From NCBI GenBank assembly GCA_051362555.1, contig CM120641.1, forward strand, positions 27,534,401 through 27,598,400: a stretch of 64,000 bases of DNA, in the 5' to 3' direction. Shown here piece after piece: positions 3,101 to 57,600 of this stretch. Source of the stretch: Lingula anatina. Taxonomy: Eukaryota; Animalia; Brachiopoda. The position numbers were made by a program, and so were the translations under genes. The notes under the pieces were generated by a model that was given only the letters and a program-made list of their open reading frames with translations, was not told the origin of the DNA and did not search any database. The first letter of the stretch is position 1. Every line of letters starts with the position of its first letter.

Positions 3101-6100
3101 TTGTTGTAGCTTGACATCGCTATCAGGCCCCCAAAAGACACGCTGAGTGAATAAAAATTCTGAACGACTGCGTCACTCCACACCTGATAGATAAAAAACG
3201 GTAAAAACAGTTAACTAAGGTAATCGATTAACCGAATTAATTTTGCAGTATACTTATGTAGTCGGCATTAAGGGGGGGGGGGTTCGATACGTTGTAGAGG
3301 CCCACATTTGGCAAAATATCTTTTATGTCTCCTCCATCTCAGTGTACCACAAACTTTTATAGTCTCATTCATAGCAAGAAAGAAGGCAACAAGGAATATT
3401 GTTTGTTTGTGATTTGGCCAAACCAGGCCGCTTTTATTTTTCTTGTTTCTTTCATGTTAATATAAGTGAAATAAAGATAAAAATATTTAAGTGTAAAAAA
3501 CCTTTTTGTTTTATTCACCAACCAATGTGCATCTGCAAAAACGCGTTAATTGTCAATTTAGTTGCTTTGTCCCTATGTGTGAGATAGTGATCAGATCCCA
3601 GCGAAACTCTATAACTATAAACTAGAAGGATATTATTATAAAATATGCCATATCCTTTACTAAGATATATACAGATTTATATAAAGCAACTTCTGCTTGT
3701 AGTATCACTTTCCGAACTGGTTTGACGGATAAAAGAAGGGAAGCTATACACTGACCTTAGAGTCTAGAAGTCGACTAAAATCAGGTGTCAGATAATACTT
3801 AAGGGGTCTAGGATATTAAAAATACGTCTAAAACTCGATTTTTAGTTTTTTATACGTTAGAAATAATCAATTTTGTATCTAATACTCAATTAAGTTATAT
3901 TTGTGAAACACGGACTAAAAATATACATTTGGACGAGTTTTTCTACCTGTCCTGACTGGTACGGGTGGCAGGCTTTAGGCTCCGCCTCCGTTGTCAAGCA
4001 CCGTTACTATGGGGGGCGGGGCAAGAATGGTTGTCTAACTTCTTAAGCTGTTACGCGTGCCCTGGCAGCTCATAGGTCTTACGTCAGCTAAGCAGAACAC
4101 AGTTATATACAGTCATGGGAAGAAAGAAAGTCGTGAGAAAACGGATGAGCGAGGAAAACAAGAGAATTTTGAAAGAGAGTGTACGATATATTAAATTTTC
4201 TACTATAGAGTCTAAATCACGTCTAGGTAAAGACTCGAGATCACACTTGAACTGCTGAGTATTCGTACAACGTCTGGGGTTGTCAGAAAAAAATCGTTAG
4301 GCAATCATTTTATGCACAATAAAGATTGTAATAGCAAGCAAGTTTTTAAGTAATATTGCCACCCAAAACATTTTCAAATTCGCATATTACGGTCTTGGCA
4401 CTCTGTGGCATCATGGCATATGCGTACCCACATTCGGCCATTTCTCGGAGTAAATCTTGCTTTGCTTTCTCAATTTTCGTGTCTTGGTGTGTAGAGCGGC
4501 GTCCACGCACGACGGGTGGCAAATTTCCTCTGCTGGCACGCCAAGTAATCCTCTTTTTGTTTGTAAGCGCTTCCTTAGACACTTCCTAGACAGTGCACAG
4601 ACTCCTACTGCGTCAGGCACAATTATGATTAATTACGTCAGTGAAACGAGAGAAGGTAGACCTACTCAGCTGTCAATCATTTCTCAGGGAAGAGCGGCTT
4701 TCGTGGTACGAATAAGTTTGCGTACAAAAGTAAGATTTTCTGGCATCTAGATAGAAACAAACAACCCAATTTTAACACGTAATGGTGTATAGACCTTCCC
4801 GATCAACAAGATGATAACAGGTAAGGTGGAGGTGCAATTATTTTGCTTAAATAGCCCAATTACCTGAGCAAAATGGTTTAGGAGCGATTTCTCAGCTTTG
4901 AAGATTGATAACATAGTCTAAACTTCAATACCCATATCTCATTCTGTAACCGTCAGATTGACATGAAATTTGATGTGTCTCTGTTTCAGTATAATATCTA
5001 GTCGACTGAGTCTTGGTTTTTGGATTGACCTTTTATTTTTGAAGTTATTAATACTGAAATTGGAAGGTCCATATATATTTCGTAAAATTCACGTTTTATC
5101 AAAATAAAATCAAAAGCAAAAATAAAAAGAGAAAATCCTGACAGAGATCACTGGAGTTTGTGCTAACTTTTAGATAGCTATTTCAATCGTATTAATAGGG
5201 CTTTTTGTTTAAGAGAAATTCTTGATTAAAAAAAAGACAATTTTAGCCTCAAAACGCTGATATTACGTCACTCGTGTTACACTGTGACTACAAACTTTGA
5301 AAAATTGTTTGGCTTGCTAGACATTATCTTTAAGTTAATAGGAAATTTCATTAGCTGCATTAGTTTTGGAGTTTTTCGTTAATATCCAAGATCCCTTAAT
5401 GCCTTCTGCGGATCCTTCCAGTAAAACACCACGTACAAGGAGAATGGCCAAGATGACATGAGGGAAAATGGCAGTAAAATAAACAGCCTGTAAAGTATAA
5501 ATATATTAAGTGTATCTTTGTTTTTGGTAACTTAAAAAATGTGAACGGTCTGACTTTAACATGTACTGTACCTACTGTGCGTTCATTTGTCTTGAAGGAC
5601 ACTTAACTACACTAAAATACTTTAATTAGCCCCAACTGCAGGGTAGGCACATACCAATTAAGTTTGGACTAATCTAATAGAAAATGGGTATATATAATAA
5701 ACAAAAGAAAATGACAAAATATGATCTCAAAAATGGAAGTATTTTAAAACCAAGATTAAGTAGAAATGCCTGGAAAAAGAGGAGGTACATGATGTATACA
5801 TGTACAACTTGTTTCTATTATGTTTTACTAATAAGTGCTTGGTCACAAAAAAAAATTTGGAACCGCTTCTGCACCACGTGACACAAACTAAAAAAATAGA
5901 TCGACAGAAAGTTGGAAGGACATGCGTTTATTTGCTGCCATTTTGCTCACCTTCCCCAGGGACTTTATTCCCTTAATCAAGACCAGGAACACGATCAACC
6001 AGGCCAGCAGAAGGCACAGGGAAAGGTCCCATTTGAGACCCCCTGAATTGTCTATCCCATCAGTCATCTCCAGGACTTTACGGCTATACAAATAAAAATG

Positions 6101-40200: not shown

Positions 40201-43200
40201 TCGTTTAAGATAATAATAATAATAATAGATAAAAATAGCGAAGACAATATTTTGACCATTTTTGCATCCATTAAACAGAACATCATGGTTGAAACTTTTT
40301 CACTTCATAATGAATCTCACTGTTTTAGTTCTAACGTGATCGAATATATTTGTATAATCCTTTCAGTTTAAAACACATTCGTTTTGTTTTCAGTTAATTT
40401 ATAAGAACGGTATAAATGCACATTTGTTTACTATTTGCTTCAAAGCTGGTGAAGGCACAAGTACACGGACAAACAACACCAACTTAATGAATAGAAAAAC
40501 CCTTCTGAATACTACCGATACTACCGAGGTCATGGCCACTTCACCAAGCGAGGAGTATTTCTAGTAAGATAATCATTCCATGAAGATTGATGAGTGCCTT
40601 TCGGAAAGTCTGCCTCTTGCTGCATTTGGCGCAAGAAAAGTTTTAAATGCAAGACATTGTATATATGCACGAAACAAAGTCAACTTAAAATTAAGATTGT
40701 TTTAACAGTATATGAATAGTTATTAATTTTAAAATATGAATAGTTATTAATTAACTGTAGATTGTTTGACTGCTTTAATCGACGCTATGGTGTACATGTA
40801 GTTTAACAATTGTAGCCGTAAAGTCCTGGAGATGACTGATGGGATAGAGAATTCAGGGGGTCTCAAATGGGACCTTTCCCTGTGTCTTCTGCTGGCCTGG
40901 TTGATTGTGTTCTTGGTCTTGATTAAGGGTATAAAGTCCCTGGGGAAGGTGAGCAACATGGCAGCAAATTAACGCATGTCCTTCCAACTTTCTGTCGATC
41001 CATTTAGTTTGTGTTAAGTGGTGCAGAAGCGGGTTCTAAATGTATTTGTTACCAAGCACTTATAAGTAAAACAATACAAAAACAAGCTGTACATGTACAC
41101 CATGTACCTCGTCTGTTTCCAGGCATCCAACTTATTACTGCTTTTGATGTTAATGTCAGATGTCAGATCGTTCACGTTTTTTAAGTAACCAAAAACAAAG
41201 ATACACTTAATATATTTATCCTTTACAGGCTGTTTATTTTACTGCCCTTTTCCCTCATGTCATCTTGGCCATTCTCCTTGTACGTGGTGTTTTACTGGAA
41301 GGATCCGCAGAAGGCATTAAGTATTATCTGACGCCTGATTTTACTCGACTTCTAGACTCTGAGGTAATCATGTTTTCATTTCTTTTATTCTTAGAATTCT
41401 ATTCAATGGTGATGTTATCCTTGGTCGCTTTAATGACCTTTGTGTGAAGGTTATGATTGCTTTAGTTTCTACTGTTTTTAATCGTCAGGTTTGGAGTGAC
41501 GCAGTCGTTCAGAATTTCTATTCGCTCAGCGTATCTTTGGGAGGCCTGATAGCGATGTCAAGCTACAACAAGTTCCACAACAACTGCTTCAGGTAAACTG
41601 AGCTGTTAAACAAATTCTTACTATTCAATATCTGTTTACAATTGAATTATGCCTGTTTTTTGGTTTTAAACTTCTTTTAAAGCTTAAATAAGGAAAAATT
41701 GAATGAGCATATCGATAAACATCAAACTTAGACATAGTAAGTTTAATATGCATTTTTGTTAAGACAATAATTTGTTAGTAATAAAGCACGAACTCAACGG
41801 GCGCGGAGTGGAAGACGTACGGCAAGCACTAAAGCTCTAAAAGTTTGATGAAGTGAATAAATGTTGGCTTACTTTAAATTTATCTGTAAGATCTAACAAT
41901 GTATAATATAATACAAACACATGGCACGATTATTCCTAGGGACGCACTAATTTGTTCCCTTATGAACTGCGGGACTAGCGTTTATGCTGGATTTGTTATC
42001 TTCTCCGTGCTTGGCTACATGGCGCATATATCTGGAAAAGATGTGGCTGATGTTGCTAGTCAGGGTACGTGTGTTTGTATGTCAAGTTCAGGTTTTCATA
42101 ACATCAAGATGGTCTGTACTTGAAACAAGAGTAAAATGCAGGCACGAGATGACGCACGCGCGCATAAATGATACAATAAAATACACATAATGATGAATGT
42201 TACCATGTCGTTGGCGTTGGTCAAAGTACCCTTTTCAGAAAAGAAAAAAATGTAAATTTTCCCATTCAGTGACTTGTGGCATTCTCACTTGGAGTAAACG
42301 TAAGATAACACAGTGTTTTGTTTCAGGCCCTGGTCTTGCCTTCATCGTGTATCCAGAGGCCATATCCCAGATGCCGTTACCGACACTGTGGGCCATTCTG
42401 TTCTTCTCCATGATGCTGTTACTGGGATTCAGCGCACAGTTTTCCATGGCAGAGACCGTTTTGAGCAGTATAATGGACGAATATCCACATATTCTACGTG
42501 TTAGTAAATGGAGGGAAACCATCATGCGGGGCGTCGTGTGCGGAGTGTGTTTTCTGCTCGGCCTGCCGATGTGTACAAGGGTTAGTTTTTTTTTTTTTGT
42601 AGGATCTTTTCAGGTCGTATAGGTATTTGAAATATCAAAACGATTATATTGATCTGTTTACGTTATTTGTTATAGAAAGAAATCATATGTCACTTCTCGC
42701 CACAAAAATCCCAGATGTGCTATCCCCGGCCGTGTATTAAGTGACAGTTATGCCACCCCCGGCCGTGTATTAAATGACAGTTACATGTATGCCACTAACA
42801 TATTAAATCCTAAACAAATTTTATTGAAATCATATATAGTTTAAAAATATTTCGAAACTAACAAGGAAAGTGTAGCACATATTGCCTTTACTTTTCGTAT
42901 GGTTTCAGGGTGGCCACTATCTATTAGATCTAATGGATCACAGTGTTGGAGGTTTCCCGTTGCTGTTTGTTAGTTTATTTGAATGCGTAGTTCTACAATG
43001 GGTCTATGGTAAGTAAGGGGTATTTTTTTCTTGTTTCTCGGTAACCTGCTGTTTGATAGTGTTCAAGGTTAAAGGTATTCAATATCTTTTACTATATGAG
43101 TATTTTATTTCATCTTGTATAAAGCACCTAAATACAGAAAAATTAATGGCAGAAGTGTTTGGTCAGTTGCACCAATATAGCTTGATTTCCCGGGCTGTCT

Positions 43201-45709: not shown

Positions 45710-46145
45710 CGGTGGGGTGAGTCCAGTCCATAAGAGGGGTGTTGGTCGGATTGATTTCATCCCATAGGAGGGGTGTCAGGTGGGGCGAGTCCATTTTATA
45801 TGAGGGGTGTCAGGTGGGGCGAGTCCATTCCATGCAAGGAGTGTCAGGTGGGGCAAGTCTATTACATTGGAGGGGTGACAGGTGGGACAAGTCCATTCCA
45901 TTCGAGGGGTGCCTGGTGAGAGTCTATTACATTGGAGGGGTGACAGGTTGGTCAAGTCCATTACATTCGAGGGGTACCAGGTGAGGCGAGTCCATTACAT
46001 TGGAGGGGAGACAGGTGAGACGACTCCATTACATTTAAGGGGTGACAGGTTGGTCGAGTCCAATCAATGGGGAAAGCCTATTCCCTTGGAGGGGTCTCAG
46101 GTTGGGCGGGGCTATTCCATTTACGGGGTGTGTAAGGTGGGGCTT
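45710..46145. repeat. G-rich minisatellite, ~28-29-bp unit, roughly 14-15 degenerate copies
   Basis: Consensus approximately GAGGGGTGACAGGTGGGGCGAGTCCATTACATT. Confidence 0.85.
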
Positions 46146-47058
46146 TTCCAATCAGTGGTAGGGGAAATTTTAAAGGGTTTTAAATTTACCTATTTTGCAA
46201 TGAAATCACACAGGTTTATTGCACTTTATAAATGTATGAAGTTCAAAATTGTTTCCTAAAATGCGCGAATGTAGCAGAAATATACTTCTTATATATTATT
46301 TCTAATTATCTCAATTTGGTTGAGAACAAGAACTGAAAAAATGTTTTAAAAAATCTGAAAAAAAAACTTTCAAAACCTAAATTTAGGCAAATTTCAACTC
46401 TCAAAAAATCTGGTTTAAATTTACATGTCAATCTTTCCACTTTTTCATTTTTCTTTTCAAATTTAAAATTGAAGTATCAATAAAACAGTTCACGGTAACA
46501 AAATTCAGAACCCATTTCCGACTTTCTGCAACCCCACAAAATTCTTTCCTTACTTATTATTATTATTATAGTTTTGATCAAGTCATATTTTAGTACTCGG
46601 CAATAAATTGCAGATTTACTTTTTGTCTCGTGGCCAATTACTTAATGAAAATTTTGTGTTAATTCTCATAACCGTTTGGCATTAATAAAAGCGGCCTTAA
46701 CTGGTCAAATATCAATCAGCCTTTATACTGTTTGTAAAGTTACTTTACTAATGCGATCATATACTACGCGATATGGAGGAGATATGAATCTAAAGTTATA
46801 CAAATTTGATCTATAAACGTATGGTGTTGGGAACTATTTTGGATTTTTCTTCGGTGTTTTTAAACAGCTTAAATACTCAAATCCCAAAATCGCCAATCAC
46901 AAAAAAAAACAAGGATATTATTTACAGATCGGAGTAAGCATATCGAATTTGAAAATTCTCAAACACGAAATAATAAAACTCATTTCATCTTATCATTATT
47001 TATATCTTTATCATCACAATTTCATAACAAAATGAAAATAAAACGTCTTATTTCAAAA

Positions 47059-49845: not shown

Positions 49846-51615
49846 TTATTCGTAGGAATATTGATCAAATGCAGGGTTGGATGAACCATTGCCATAGAGC
49901 GCTTTTGCCTTGGATTTTGTGTCGTACTTTGACCCTTCGCGGTCTTCCGCATTTGCAGGTCCCCAGTCAGCTTGCGGTGATGCAGAGCTCTTCAAGGCCT
50001 AGAAACGAAACATACACATAATATTAAAAAACTAAACTATTAAATCTTAAAAATTAGGATAAGTTTTATTTGTTTGTGTTAAAATATCGTCGTTCAATAT
50101 CAATCGCCACCAACCTGGAAGCCGCCGTCGTAGCAGAATCTGCCAAGGAACCAGCCGGGGATGAGGGCGATAGGAGTAAATGCAATCATCCATCCCATGG
50201 CCTGGGCCCATACAGGGTAAATGTAGCCCTGGTACACGTGTGGTTTCAACAGAACGAACTTGAATGCTATGACAGCCTGCAAAGAAAACATGAGAAGGAT
50301 ACAGGACATCAAGAGGAGGGACAATCCCCAGGGAACCGTTTACGTATTGTGTATTATATAAATTTGCGGCAAAACAATGCCAAATTTGAAGAAAAGTTCA
50401 GATTTTAATCAGTTTTCTACATTTTTATCCTGCGTTCTTCACTTTCGAGTTACAAATGACTAAACTACTGTAATGCTATTTTTGCAACATGGGCAGCTGT
50501 CTTAAAACTGACTGACAATTCAGTAGCAGCTTGCTACACGTAGTAAGACATTTAAACTGACATGGTAACTGTATTTCCACCAGTAAAGTTCTCAGAGTCA
50601 CTTACAAACATGAGAAATGGTGAAACGTAAACCCACATAATCCGGAAATATATGTTAGGTTTCTTGCCAAGCATCATTTTGACGTCCTCAGAAAACCTGT
50701 CCCATCCTAGAAGAAAGAATTTTTTTAAAAAAAATCTGATTAACTTATTCGATAAATGAAACTGGAAGCCCAAGTCACTAGAGAGCAAATAATAGTAACA
50801 GTCATAATGACCATAATAGAAAAAATACAAATCTGGTGAAATCCTACATGTTAAAGGGCGGTTGATCGAAAATGGCACGTCAATGAGGAAACGACACATA
50901 CCATAGACCCACTGCAGCACTATGCATTCAAATAAGCCAACAAACAGTAGCGGGAAGCCGCCAATATACGTGTCCACTAAGTCAAATAGAAAATGACCAC
51001 TCTGGAAATCGAAAAAAAATACATATAAAGAGCATAATAAGCGGACACCAGTAGCATTTACAAAGAAAGGTTTCCCCATGTCCAATTTACGTGTTAAAAT
51101 TTCATTAAATAACAACAATATTCAAAGACAACATTATATAGTTATATTAATTTTTTTCTATTCCATTCGTACCCTGTGAATTAAAGATGCCTGTAATCTG
51201 TATAAATAATGGAATTAAAGAGAAACAATATGAAGTGCATAGACTTACCTTTGTACACATGGGCAAACCGAGCAAGAAAAACAATCCACACGCGACACCC
51301 CGCATAAGGATTTCCCTCTTTTTATTAACGCGTAGAATATGTGCGTAATCATCCATTATGCTGCTCAATACGCATTCCACTATGGAGAATTGGGAGCTGA
51401 AACCTAGCAGCATCATCATGAAAAAGAACAGAATGGCCCACAGTGTCGGTAACGGCATCGTGGATATGGCCTCTGGATAAACGATGAAGGCAAGACCAGG
51501 ACCTGAAATATGGCAATCACAAATCTTTGCAAAAATTCTAAAACAAAATATCACTTGCAATTCCACAACCATTTTCTCTTAAATTATGTCCTTCAAGTAA
51601 TGACGAAACTCCCGT

Positions 51616-51666
<51 letters not shown>

Positions 51667-54600
51667 TTTGCAGCGGGATGAATTCTGATCCCTTCAGTTA
51701 AACGGCATACTATTTTTTTTACTTCTGTTGCACAACTATTTTACATGTACCACTTACCCAACGTCTCGGGTGGCTTTCTTTTACAGGCACACGTTAAATC
51801 GAATAAATGAATCACTCAGCATCTTTACTGTTTGTGGTCTTAATTTTTTTCTATATCCAAAAAATCATAAGAATTTCATATTGGCAAACAGGACTCAACG
51901 TACCTTGACTAGCAACATCAGCCACCTCTTTACCAGATATATGCGCCATGTAGCCAAGCACGGAGAAGATAACAAATCCAGCATATATACTTGTGCCACA
52001 GTTAATAAGAGGCACAATCAGAGCGTCCCTAAGAATATACAGTCAATTATAAATATGCAATTCGTCAATGCATCATTGATTTGCGTAAAGGCTTGGAGCA
52101 ATACAAAGTCAAATAACACAGCAAATGACCACTGCATTCAACAGAAAAACAACTATGTTAGCCACTCAAAAGGTGTTTTTTAAAAATACATTTAAAAAAA
52201 TGTTAAGCAAATAAACATGTTAAGATTTAGTAAATGGTTAGATTAAATATGGTCAGATAAATACTGTAAGTAGTTCTATTAAAGCCTCAGCGATAGGACA
52301 AATAATATGCAGGTATTAAAAAAGAACAGAAAAAAAGCAGTCAACGGCAATGGTGAAGTACCCGATGAAGATATATATAATAATTACAGAACTTGATTAC
52401 TATACAACGTTTACAGTGCATGACATTTAAAGCAAAGTGCAAAACAAAACATGCAAACTCATGCAAATTATATAAAGGATATGTACGTCAAATCAGATTG
52501 ACTAAAGAGGAGGGAGATTAAGAGGGACAGGCAAGCCCAAGCCATCGATTTCATATCCACACGAAGTGTGGTAAAATATCCATACACAAGTACCCAGGTA
52601 TCCATTCACATAATATTCAAAGAGAATTAATCCCCTATGCATGCATGATTATAGGTATAAAAATCAAACCAAACCATGCTAAGTCTATCAAAAAAAAGGG
52701 TAAATTCCACCTAAATAAGGTACATCCCAATAGTCTGACATGGGACAAACGTTGTACTGTATTTCACAGTCCAGTCTACCTGAAGCAGTTGTTGTTGAAT
52801 TTGTTGTAGCTTGCCATCACTACCAGCCCTCCTGAGCATGCGCTGAGAGAATAAAAAATCTGAACGACTGCGTCACTCCATACCTGGCAGGTATAAATGA
52901 TAAGAACCAAGTCAACCAGGTCTACTCTAACATAAACTTATTGAAGATAAAAAAATATAAAGAACCATTTTATCATAATTTGTGCTTGCTGGATCTTATT
53001 TGGTATAATTTTCATCATGGCTAATTTTGTCTTTACGGGTCTCTTAGTATAACTTCAATCTATTGGTTGCCGTGATCTTAATCAAAATATTATTTAGATG
53101 TAACAGATCTGCATCAAGATGCACGTACACATAGCATTCCCTTGAACACATCACTGTTTGATAAAGGAGGTATTGGATTATGCCGCTGAAAACTTCCCTT
53201 GAAAGATTTAAAGACATCACAAAGAAGTGTCTTTTCTGTTTTTTTTTTTTCTATTTAAAACTTTTTTCATAAAAATAAATATATGAGGACTAAGAGAATT
53301 TGAACGATACATGTACATTACTTTATACGGACTTTGACAACACTTTTTAAGTCAACTTCTTTTGCTATTTTGTTTTTCAAATGATTCATAGATTTTAAAC
53401 AATCATTTCTTAACGCTGTATTGGCATCTCAGTGCTTTTTGTACACCATATAAACATGTGAAAAATATGAGGATGTGAAACAACGATAAAGAGGCAGGTG
53501 ATAGTGACCAAATGTATAGGTGATGTTGCAACTGTGCTGATGACAAAACAAACACTCGATCACGTACGGTGACAAAAATGATATGTCGTGAAGCAAACAA
53601 AAAGAACACTACGTTTTGCTGAGTCATGCCGGATGTGTTTTATATTACAAATTGATTGTGCTCAAACAGGGAGATGGGAGGAAGTGACATGCTGCGCGGC
53701 AAGTAGTCAAAATACGGTAAAACAAGAGCATTTTCAACAACGCGTCAAGCAGGCCAATACCTGAATGCGTTCGTACGAAATTTGTTAAAGCTAGCCATGG
53801 TTATCAGTCCACCAGAGGAGACACTTAGTGAATAGAATATTTGAACCACTGCGTCGCTCCAGACCTGTTAAAACCAACATGTTAGTATCTTTACGTGTCT
53901 GATATACACTAATTAAAAACTGTCATTCGTTTCGCTTTTTTCGTCTTTTTCTTTCTTCCGTTTCATATTCCCTATCAGTGTCGTCGATGGTGAAATTGCC
54001 TTTGTAAACAGAAAAAATGCTTTTGTTTGATCACATTTTTATGTCACACTATCTATACCCAAGTTTACTAGGAAATAATTTTGCGTACTTCACGGAAATA
54101 TCACTTTTTTATTTGCGTTTGAATGGAATGGGCTAGAAAGTAGTCTGGTGTGTAAAGGGGATTGCACCTGAAACGTAATAAAATAGCAACTTCTTGCCAA
54201 CTTCTCCATTGCCGTTTTCTCGCCATACCGTTTGTGTGTAGGCCAGTCAAAGAAACATGGCTGCCCGCTTTCTGCCGCAACTTGAATCATTTACCTGTAG
54301 CAGTTATTATGGAATTTCCCAAAACTAGCCATTACGATCAAACTTCCTGCACACACACCCAAAGAGTAGAATACTTGAACACATGCGTCGCTCCATACCT
54401 ATTGTAAAGTCCAAATCTTCAAGTATTGAGGAAGATTAACCTTGACATGCCATCCTCGGGAGGAAAACCATGTGCAAGGTGCAGGAAAGCCAAGACGGCT
54501 TCATCAGCGACACGATACAGTTAAGTCAAAGTTTGTTCAAGCATAAACCAAGCATATATGTATCTTTTTGCTGGGTTACTTTTGGGAGACGCCTCTACAC

Positions 54601-57600
54601 ACATAATTTAGAACAAACCCATGCCATTTACTTTTTAGTATATACATATATAGACGGTTGAATATGGGACTAGGCATACAGGCAAAACGTACATTGCTCA
54701 AGACATTTTGCTTATCGATTGTTTTTTACTTTTAAATACTTTAAAGTATACATTTGAAAGATAACCATCATACAATGTTTGGAACAGTAAACATAAATAC
54801 AAGTTTTAAGAACTTTATCTTATCCATATTAGCTGATACACAAACGAAAGCATTACCTCAATGTCTGCAAGACGTGTAATATTAGGCGACATGTAATATC
54901 GAATGCCTTCAGCAGATCCCGGCAGCAAAGCGCCGTTTACAAGGAGAATGGTAAGGATGATGTAGGGAAAAATGGCGGTGAAATAGACAACCTAAAAACC
55001 AAATAAAGTTATCTGTTTGACCGAAAACGAAAAAGTTTGAAAGAAGTAAGTTTTCTTAAACATCCGTTAATCTTGGTACGCAACTTTTTGTGTTAATAAT
55101 GAAAAGAAGGTTATTTAATGAATATATATTACAAAAACATTCTATCACTATGCTATTAATCTAGAACGACACAGTGAGAAGATGTCAGGAAAATTCTGAG
55201 GGGGAAGTGGATGAGAGAGATTATTTTGTGAATGTTTTTTAGTACATCCCAGTACGTGAAATGACTCACTTTCCCTAGGGACTGGATTCCCTTGATCAGG
55301 ACCAGGAACACAATCAACCAGGCCAGCAGAAGACACAGGGAAAGGTCCCATTTGAGACCCCCTGAATTGTCTATCCCATCAGTCATCTCCAGGACTTTAC
55401 GGCTATAAGTAAACAACCATGTGCAAAGTATAGGGTATATGTGTAACAATCCAGTAGTGATTTTATATCTTTTTTGACCAGACTCTCAATTATAGAATTT
55501 TTATTTTGAGTAGATACTAAATGGTAAAAGATGAGATGCATCTTTTTTGGAAGACATAACAATAAAATGTTATCTTACTAGAAGTATTCCTCGCTGGGCG
55601 ATATACGGGAACTGGTATTGGTAGCGTTCATAAGCATTGTAGTCATTGAAGAACTAGCAGTGGTGGTCACTGCAGAACTGACAGTTGTGGTCATATTGGT
55701 CGTGTTCGTCGAAACGCCTTGGCCAACTTAAAATTGGTTGAAATTTTTTCAAGATTTAAAAATAAAGATTAAGATAAGTACGAATATATTATCAAAGCAA
55801 TGTATTACACCCTCGCAAACTTAATGAATGGGAACTTGAAAAACCCAATGTAACCATAATGCACATAATTTTAATTAAAAGGCCTGACATCATTTCATGG
55901 CTTTAAAATGTTTACTCTGACTCCCCCTTTTTTAATTTGTGTTCCAAAAAATCCATTGGCATGAGCTACAGAGCGGATCTCTTCCATGTCATTACCTTCT
56001 AAGCAATCTTTAGTGTTCCAAGGATTCCCACAAGAAGACCACGGCAAATTGGCCGTCATGGAGGCGAAGAAGTAGTAAATACAGTAGGCAATGATAACGT
56101 TGTAGTATAGACCCATGATTAGAGACACCATCACCATGGCATAGCCGAGACCTGAAGAAACGCAATGTGGGGTTTTAAAATCATTTTTTAAAATAAAAAT
56201 GACTAAAAGTGTACTACTTTTTTTTTCACGAATGTACAGTACTCATCTTGCCAATACCCGTTCGCTTATTAACTCCTGTCTTTGTGATGTTGAGCAAAAC
56301 AGAAATTGGTGAGAAAAAGCGGCATGAACATGAACATGAACATTTATTATCTTTATATTATTGATTATTAAATAATTACAATACACAACGTGTGTGCGGG
56401 GGGGGGGGGGCAATTCATACTTAGGCAAATAAACGAGATACTCCGCAGCTGAATATAGCTTAATAAAGATAACCTACCTTTAAACAGTGGACTAATTTTC
56501 CAAATAGTGATAGGCCCAAGACTGGCAAACTGGCCAAAACAAAGTTCCATGAAGAATAAGGGTAGACCCACAAATGCCAAGCTGATGCAGTATGGGAGAA
56601 TAAAGGCTCCTGGAAATAGAAGGATACTGAGCAACAATATGTCACACGGCTGTCATTAATTCAATTCAGAGAGGTGTTTCTTCTTAACATCTACTCACAA
56701 TACTTAATCACTGAATGTTAGAGATAGTTACAAAATTTCAACAGAGTAACGACAGCCCTTAAAGCATTTCAAGCTTAATTATCAAATAAGTTTGTTACCC
56801 GTATTGCGGTAGTTGAGATTCGAGTCCCAAATTGGCTTACCTCCACCGTTCCTGTAACATAGGTATGGAAAGCGCCATACATTTCCCAGACCTACGGCAT
56901 AGCCGACACAGGTTAAAATAAACTCTATCTGGCCCCCCCAGTTACCGCGCTCATTCAATTCACTCGCCATAAGATCAGCTTGAGAGTCTAAGCGACCCAT
57001 GTCGGCGTCAGCCGCGGCTTCCAATTCTTTGGAGACCGAGTTCACCGTGGTGGGTTTTCCCTGGAAAGAAATTTTGTTTTTACAACTATATTACAACTAG
57101 AAAAGTTGTCATAAGTGGCCCAAACTCGCTTTGTTTCGATATATAGATATATCGTTCATCTTTAATATAAACACTTTTGAAGTGGTATTACATGTATCGT
57201 TGGTTTCATCGTTTCTTAGATGAAGATATAAAAAAATCTCATGGTTTCATCATACTACTCATATTGATCCGCTCCCTATCTGTCACAGTTTAGATCAATG
57301 AATTTGAGAACCATCACTGCCTCCACATGCCCTTTCAATACCGTTATCTTTATTCATGTAAGACATGATTTGAAGTGCACCGCAAACATGTGACGTTATA
57401 TAGCCAAAGTACCATTTGAATCTGTCGACATTCTGAAGAGATGCATTTTGCATACAATACGCTGCTCGTCCCGTTCCAAACCGCAGCCGTGAGACCGAAT
57501 TTATCAACACAGATACTACACAGTTGTCCGTCTGTCAGCACTTGTTGACTAGGGTGATAAGAACGCTCAAATTGCACGCAATAAAGTTGTCAGTTTATGG

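Follow-up and report, generated by a model that had tools for sequence, protein, structure and literature searches.

How a gene with several interchangeable copies of one exon comes to place a single copy in each message is a question raised by a minus-strand SLC6 (neurotransmitter:sodium symporter) gene of the brachiopod Lingula anatina, which lies in a 64,000-nucleotide window of contig CM120641.1 (assembly GCA_051362555.1, positions 27,534,401 to 27,598,400; coordinates below are those of this window). Between its exons 7 and 9, the gene carries three tandem 104-nt copies of one exon, 8a, 8b and 8c, all with AG/GT ends, and the introns around them contain two long-range complementarities: duplex A, which encloses 8a, and duplex B, which encloses 8b and 8c. 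Here we propose, with a probability of roughly 0.4, that the exons are used singly and that the crossing duplexes bias the choice among them by looping exons out, as in exon 4 of Drosophila srp. The locus would then be a candidate further case of the known srp-type bidirectional pairing, with a modelled signal only modestly above chance. The array of exons, which encodes transmembrane helix 6 (TM6), is the better supported and more interesting feature than the duplex switch. A brachiopod case, if true, would support a wide emergence of RNA-structure control over duplicated exons.

Three tandem copies of the TM6 exon

The Lingula anatina protein XP_013390656.1 (P0002) matches exon 10 of the gene at 100% identity and also matches the constitutive exons 7 (54857..54991, with AG/GT ends) and 9 (51904..52028), which flank the exon cluster upstream and downstream; these and all features of the cluster are on the minus strand. 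Between them lie 8a (54295..54398), 8b (53761..53864) and 8c (52780..52883), in an arrangement compact enough (2.8 kb) to be well suited to a minigene. The frame stays open through exon 10 with single inclusion only: skipping, all three double inclusions and the triple inclusion stop early. Pairwise among the copies, silent-site differences are saturated (0.78–0.93) and replacement-site differences are low (0.15–0.23), so that each copy appears to be ancient and under selection. A shared length and phase, undamaged splice sites, a frame that tolerates one copy and purifying selection are the marks of tandem duplicated mutually exclusive exons, and the three intact TM6 exons are likely to be spliced one at a time.

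The copies differ in their splice sites and in their relatives. Acceptor strength rises along the transcript, with 9, 11 and 15 pyrimidines per 20 nt at 8a, 8b and 8c, respectively. The single RefSeq model of the gene contains 8c, leaving 8a and 8b unannotated, and each of three SLC6 paralogs in the window has one exon-8 copy, to which 8c is much closer (85–87%) than 8a or 8b. Exon 8a is the most divergent copy, its best match among 204 distinct exon-8 peptides reaching 24/34. In four of nine raw sequencing runs, RNA reads numbered 16 (X12), 2 (X18), 0 (X15) and 0 (X17), none of them 99% alike to the gene; their fixed differences and loose ends fit neighbouring paralogs when compared by eye. 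Among the titles and opening lines of abstracts retrieved from the open-licence literature, no paper was found that describes TM6 exons used as alternatives in any SLC6 gene.

Two crossing duplexes and their chance expectation

Duplex A pairs arm A1 in intron 7 (54628–54592) with arm A2 downstream of 8a (54158–54122). On the transcribed minus strand, the inner helix joins 54602–54592 to 54158–54148 through 11 base pairs, one of them G-U, and the outer helix joins 54628–54618 to 54132–54122 through 10 of 11; both are as in the original prediction, as is the two-helix stem that they form in one register around 8a. The spacers between the helices, said there to be identical, agree in length (15 nt each) and differ in sequence. 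On folding, the outer helix gains two pairs and a 13 × 13 internal loop remains. Duplex B pairs B1 (54200..54216) with B2 (52343..52359), with 16 of 17 positions complementary. The predicted order A1, 8a, B1, A2, 8b, 8c, B2 is also right, so the duplexes interleave in a crossing topology. Taken in isolation, they have energies of −30.3 (A) and −23.3 (B) kcal/mol. Rfam gave 0 matches at E ≤ 1 across 51800–55100.

Against chance, duplex A by itself gives an answer that depends on the statistic. Helix scores were computed with a simplified Turner model, and tiles of real DNA were taken from the window; these overlap one another and cover exonic as well as intergenic sequence. The best single helix of A is equalled in 285 of 800 shuffles, and neither helix is unusual alone. 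The two-helix score is equalled in 6/800, and an in-register version of it, a statistic modelled on the observation itself, in 1/800. Of 82 shuffles, 5 likewise have 25 or more pairs that enclose the exon at p > 0.9, and against real tiles of the same geometry the two-helix score is equalled in 5/254 and a general duplex score in 75/254. Folding energies do not single the region out: the whole 521-nt domain of A has a z-score of −0.74, with 25 of 100 shuffles folding as well; sliding windows give −1.25 for the domain and −1.73 to 3.38 for 19 others, among which nothing stands out; and other intron pairs reach windowed energies of −34.1 to −37.6, equal to or lower than the −32.7 of A. Duplex A alone is borderline, and its result depends on a post-hoc statistic.

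Duplex B is equalled in 2/400 shuffles and 7/224 tiles, and by the general duplex score in 3, 13 and 4 of 150 shuffles. Taken together, the two are harder to match. Under a cluster-wide correction for six intron pairs and two statistics, a combination of an upstream and a downstream duplex of equal strength occurs in 0/285 shuffles and 2/224 real tiles, and the combined score is reached in 0/285 shuffles. The A-plus-B pair is uncommon, at about the 1–5% level against real DNA. Commonness in shuffled sequence, which had been named as grounds for abandoning the idea, is found in part for A alone, and the two duplexes together are uncommon in the controls.

Several results weigh against a regulatory role for the duplexes, and for A in particular. 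The statistic that favours A was picked after A had been seen; under three per-base costs, the general duplex score is equalled in 207, 60 and 164 of 400 shuffles. After the cluster-wide correction, the best single test is equalled in 8/285 shuffles and 39/224 real tiles, and even the combined score is reached in 10/224 tiles. The arms are absent from the introns of the paralogs, and no direct repeats that would betray duplication of the arms occur in the four introns of the cluster. In two distant and possibly non-orthologous metagenome loci with tandem copies of the exon (L016 and L027, described below), the two-helix duplex is no better than chance, being equalled for the first copy in 143/200 and 147/200 shuffles and for the second in 151/200 and 56/200. 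The one-member protein cluster of P0002 contains no 8a or 8b form, and no 8a or 8b fragment exceeds 71% identity among the matches listed (120 of 184) in a search of shorter proteins.

Many of these points suit an explanation in which duplex A is chance complementarity: the exons are still alternative, but proteins and the strength of the splice sites decide which is used, and the reading frame together with message decay makes the mRNA pool exclusive. Nonsense-mediated decay removes frame-shifted or prematurely stopped messages, and with a frame that admits single inclusion only it could render the mRNA pool exclusive without any structure. The ordinary single helices and general scores, the corrected tile count, the unremarkable domain energy, the equal or better energies of other intron pairs and the lack of a comparable duplex in L016 and L027 all favour it; the rarity of A and B together and the 5/82 frequency with which shuffles match the dominance of A in the ensemble speak against it. 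We regard it as a serious possibility that falls short of even odds.

Some other matches can be set beside these duplexes. Near two paralogs, stretches of 10 to 12 bases match the arms; these were set aside as coincidental, being non-collinear and, in one case, within an insertion. Two further duplexes are leads: one around 8a and 8b (54483–54461 with 53141–53120; 3/285 shuffles, 26/224 tiles) and one around 8b (54108–54079 with 53602–53574), which has p of about 0.8 in the full-cluster fold and 0.05 with the arms of B blocked. Between B1 and A2 lies a strong acceptor-like site (54167–54160, minus strand; a pyrimidine tract and CAG), 8 nt upstream of A2; the frame behind it does not resemble exon 8, and the site might be a cryptic acceptor masked by duplex A.

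Relation of the duplexes and a proposed mechanism

Whether A and B exclude each other was approached through folding. In three fragments without B2, the inner helix of A forms at p 0.89–1.0 and the outer helix at 0.7–1.0. In the full 2,836-nt cluster, folded with nested pairs only, B reaches 0.94 and A falls to 0.04, with the inner arm of A1 re-pairing with 52083–52092 at 0.66; when the arms of B are blocked, A returns to 0.93. The flip from A to B arises because the model forbids crossing helices. B1 and A2 have no base in common and are separated by 41 nt, and in these models nothing forces A and B to exclude each other. Strict competition between the two structures is therefore not supported by the folding.

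A strict switch, in which A and B never co-form and the fold state decides between 8a and 8b or 8c, would fit the passage of the nested fold from A to B once B2 is present, and has a precedent of sorts in srp, where Yue et al. (2016) favour competition although the arms do not overlap (PMC4691838). That the model itself imposes the flip, that the arms are well apart and that A recovers when B is blocked all count against it, and we consider it improbable. Of the bidirectional switch first envisaged between 8a and 8b/8c, what stands is the srp-type topology and the uncommonness of the pair; what is not supported is the strict exclusion, and the choice of 8b versus 8c is left unexplained.

The srp-like biasing that we prefer is supported by the rarity of A and B together, by the predicted dominance of A before B2 and of B after it, by the gradient of acceptor strength and by the annotation of 8c. 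Duplex A would hide 8a and duplex B would hide 8b and 8c, with bias exerted through timing and relative strength rather than through a common arm. Timing should favour A: judged by coordinates, some 1.8 kb of transcription separates A2 from the later B2, so that A would be complete by that margin ahead of B2 and is predicted by folding to form at p > 0.9 in the nascent RNA. Early formation of A, combined with the weakest acceptor, would cause 8a to be skipped by default, which agrees with the annotated 8c form. Formation of B would bring the 8a donor near the exon 9 acceptor and so permit 8a. A message that lacked the exon or held more than one copy would shift frame or stop early and probably be lost to nonsense-mediated decay, and the choice of 8b versus 8c would require a further factor.

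A different reading of the same helices is that 8a is nearly silent, kept masked by A together with local helices between intron 7 and 8a, with no regulated switch. These local helices (intron side 54502..54544; 54544–54534 with 54381–54371, and 54513–54506 with 54392–54385) cover the first 30 nt of 8a in all folds at p 0.8–0.98, and 8a is the most divergent copy, has the weakest acceptor and is missing from the RefSeq model. The local helices are nonetheless equalled in 20/400 shuffles, and the retained length, frame, splice sites and low replacement rate of 8a argue for its use. We judge this reading highly improbable.

The closest parallel to biasing by A and B is found in insects, in which bidirectional RNA pairing of duplicated exons has been shown for Drosophila srp exon 4: two crossing, non-overlapping pairs, with the exon chosen according to their relative strength (PMC4691838). 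Yue et al. allow for a pseudoknot and argue from mutants for competition or kinetics (PMC4691838), and Ivanov and Pervouchine describe the srp pairs as having no common site (PMC6071210). Lingula and srp share an upstream pair around the first exon, a downstream pair around the later exon or exons, crossing and a possible long-range pseudoknot. In srp there are two exons, and the arms are conserved and proven by mutation, whereas Lingula has three exons and arms known from sequence and folding, and its 8b/8c choice is outside the reach of both duplexes. Docking-site/selector systems (Dscam exon 6, 14-3-3zeta and Mhc; PMC6071210) likewise loop out exon copies by long-range intron pairing, and in partial likeness to them an alternative partner is available to A1 (its inner arm with 52082–52092) and to B2 (with 53181–53200). 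Those alternatives are unexceptional, however, being equalled in 130/285 and 258/285 shuffles, respectively; A and B have no common docking site, and no duplicated selectors were detected.

Exon 8 in other animals and in the substrate pocket

Duplication of this exon extends beyond Lingula. At least 2 of 80 metagenome loci have two tandem copies of exon 8, a count that is a floor because many of the contigs are short. In L016 the copies (1056–1159 and 1284–1387, 104 nt each) show a Gly/Ser dimorphism; in L027 (496–599 and 773–876, 104 nt each) the first copy looks decayed, and a 14-bp helix encloses both copies, equalled in 1/200 shuffles and unlike Lingula in layout. Among 30 protein clusters, four of them single-member, one contains same-gene isoforms that differ at exon 8: isoforms X1 and X2 of the nemertean Lineus longissimus, annotated models of 630 amino acids each, whose 12 differing positions all fall within the exon-8 segment. 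X2 is the best match of Lingula 8b (27/34), the best match of X2 is 8b in turn, tied with the first copy of L016, and a 12-residue run is common to 8b and X2 only among the 204 exon-8 peptides. In a tree built without exon 8, the Lingula and Lineus genes fall in one lophotrochozoan clade (support 0.835; sisterhood unresolved). On this sequence evidence, the two clusters probably share ancestry.

A comparable arrangement may exist in Tubulanus polymorphus, in which P0019 and P0134 are near-identical paralogs with strongly divergent exon-8 blocks; they may represent a pair of gene copies for which different alternative exons were annotated.

Exon 8 encodes TM6 and aligns with TM6 of GlyT2, carrying the equivalents of GlyT2 F476, S477, S479 and W482; GlyT1 and GlyT2 (SLC6A9 and SLC6A5) are the best matches of solved structure. 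In GlyT2, W482 restricts the pocket to glycine and S479G admits sarcosine, as in GlyT1 (PMC8602798), and the 482 position has been described as a volume sensor (PMC9599917). At the equivalents of 479 and 482, 8a has Gly/Ala and 8b and 8c have Ser/Ser, and position 479 is occupied by Gly in one or more copies and by Ser in another in each of Lingula, Lineus and L016. The hallmark Trp of the glycine transporters is missing at position 482, replaced by Ala (8a) or Ser (8b and 8c), and unlike GlyT1 and GlyT2 the Lingula gene falls in a clade of lophotrochozoan genes separate from the sequences that bear Trp. With Ser or Ala in place of Trp, the Lingula carriers are unlikely to be glycine-specific, and the database name is no evidence of such specificity; the residues that vary make it likely that exon choice tunes substrate range. 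Independently of the duplexes, transporters identical except in TM6 offer a natural test of how Gly/Ser and Ala/Ser pocket positions shape SLC6 substrate range. The most inclusive history, a lophotrochozoan swap of SLC6 TM6 exons that predates the split of brachiopods and nemerteans, toggles the Gly/Ser difference between GlyT1 and GlyT2 and in Lingula runs on srp-type duplexes outside arthropods, appears unlikely as a whole.

The neighbouring SLC6 genes provide some observations of their own. Exon 6 of the focal gene (55270–55402) and the first half of exon 10 (51249–51502) are nearly identical in DNA to those of a paralog (40817–40949 and 42328–42581), and exon 7 of the two genes has only about 68% protein identity, a pattern that suggests patchy gene conversion within the four-gene SLC6 cluster. 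Exon 7 of another paralog (3803–5394, minus strand) is split by a 1.6-kb insertion with TTAA on both flanks and with terminal inverted repeats that are imperfect and roughly 17 nt long, which we take to resemble a piggyBac-type element and which may be haplotype-specific, as its RefSeq relative P0004 is uninterrupted. Between convergent SLC6 genes, at 45720–46260, lies a GC-richer block resembling a tandem repeat.

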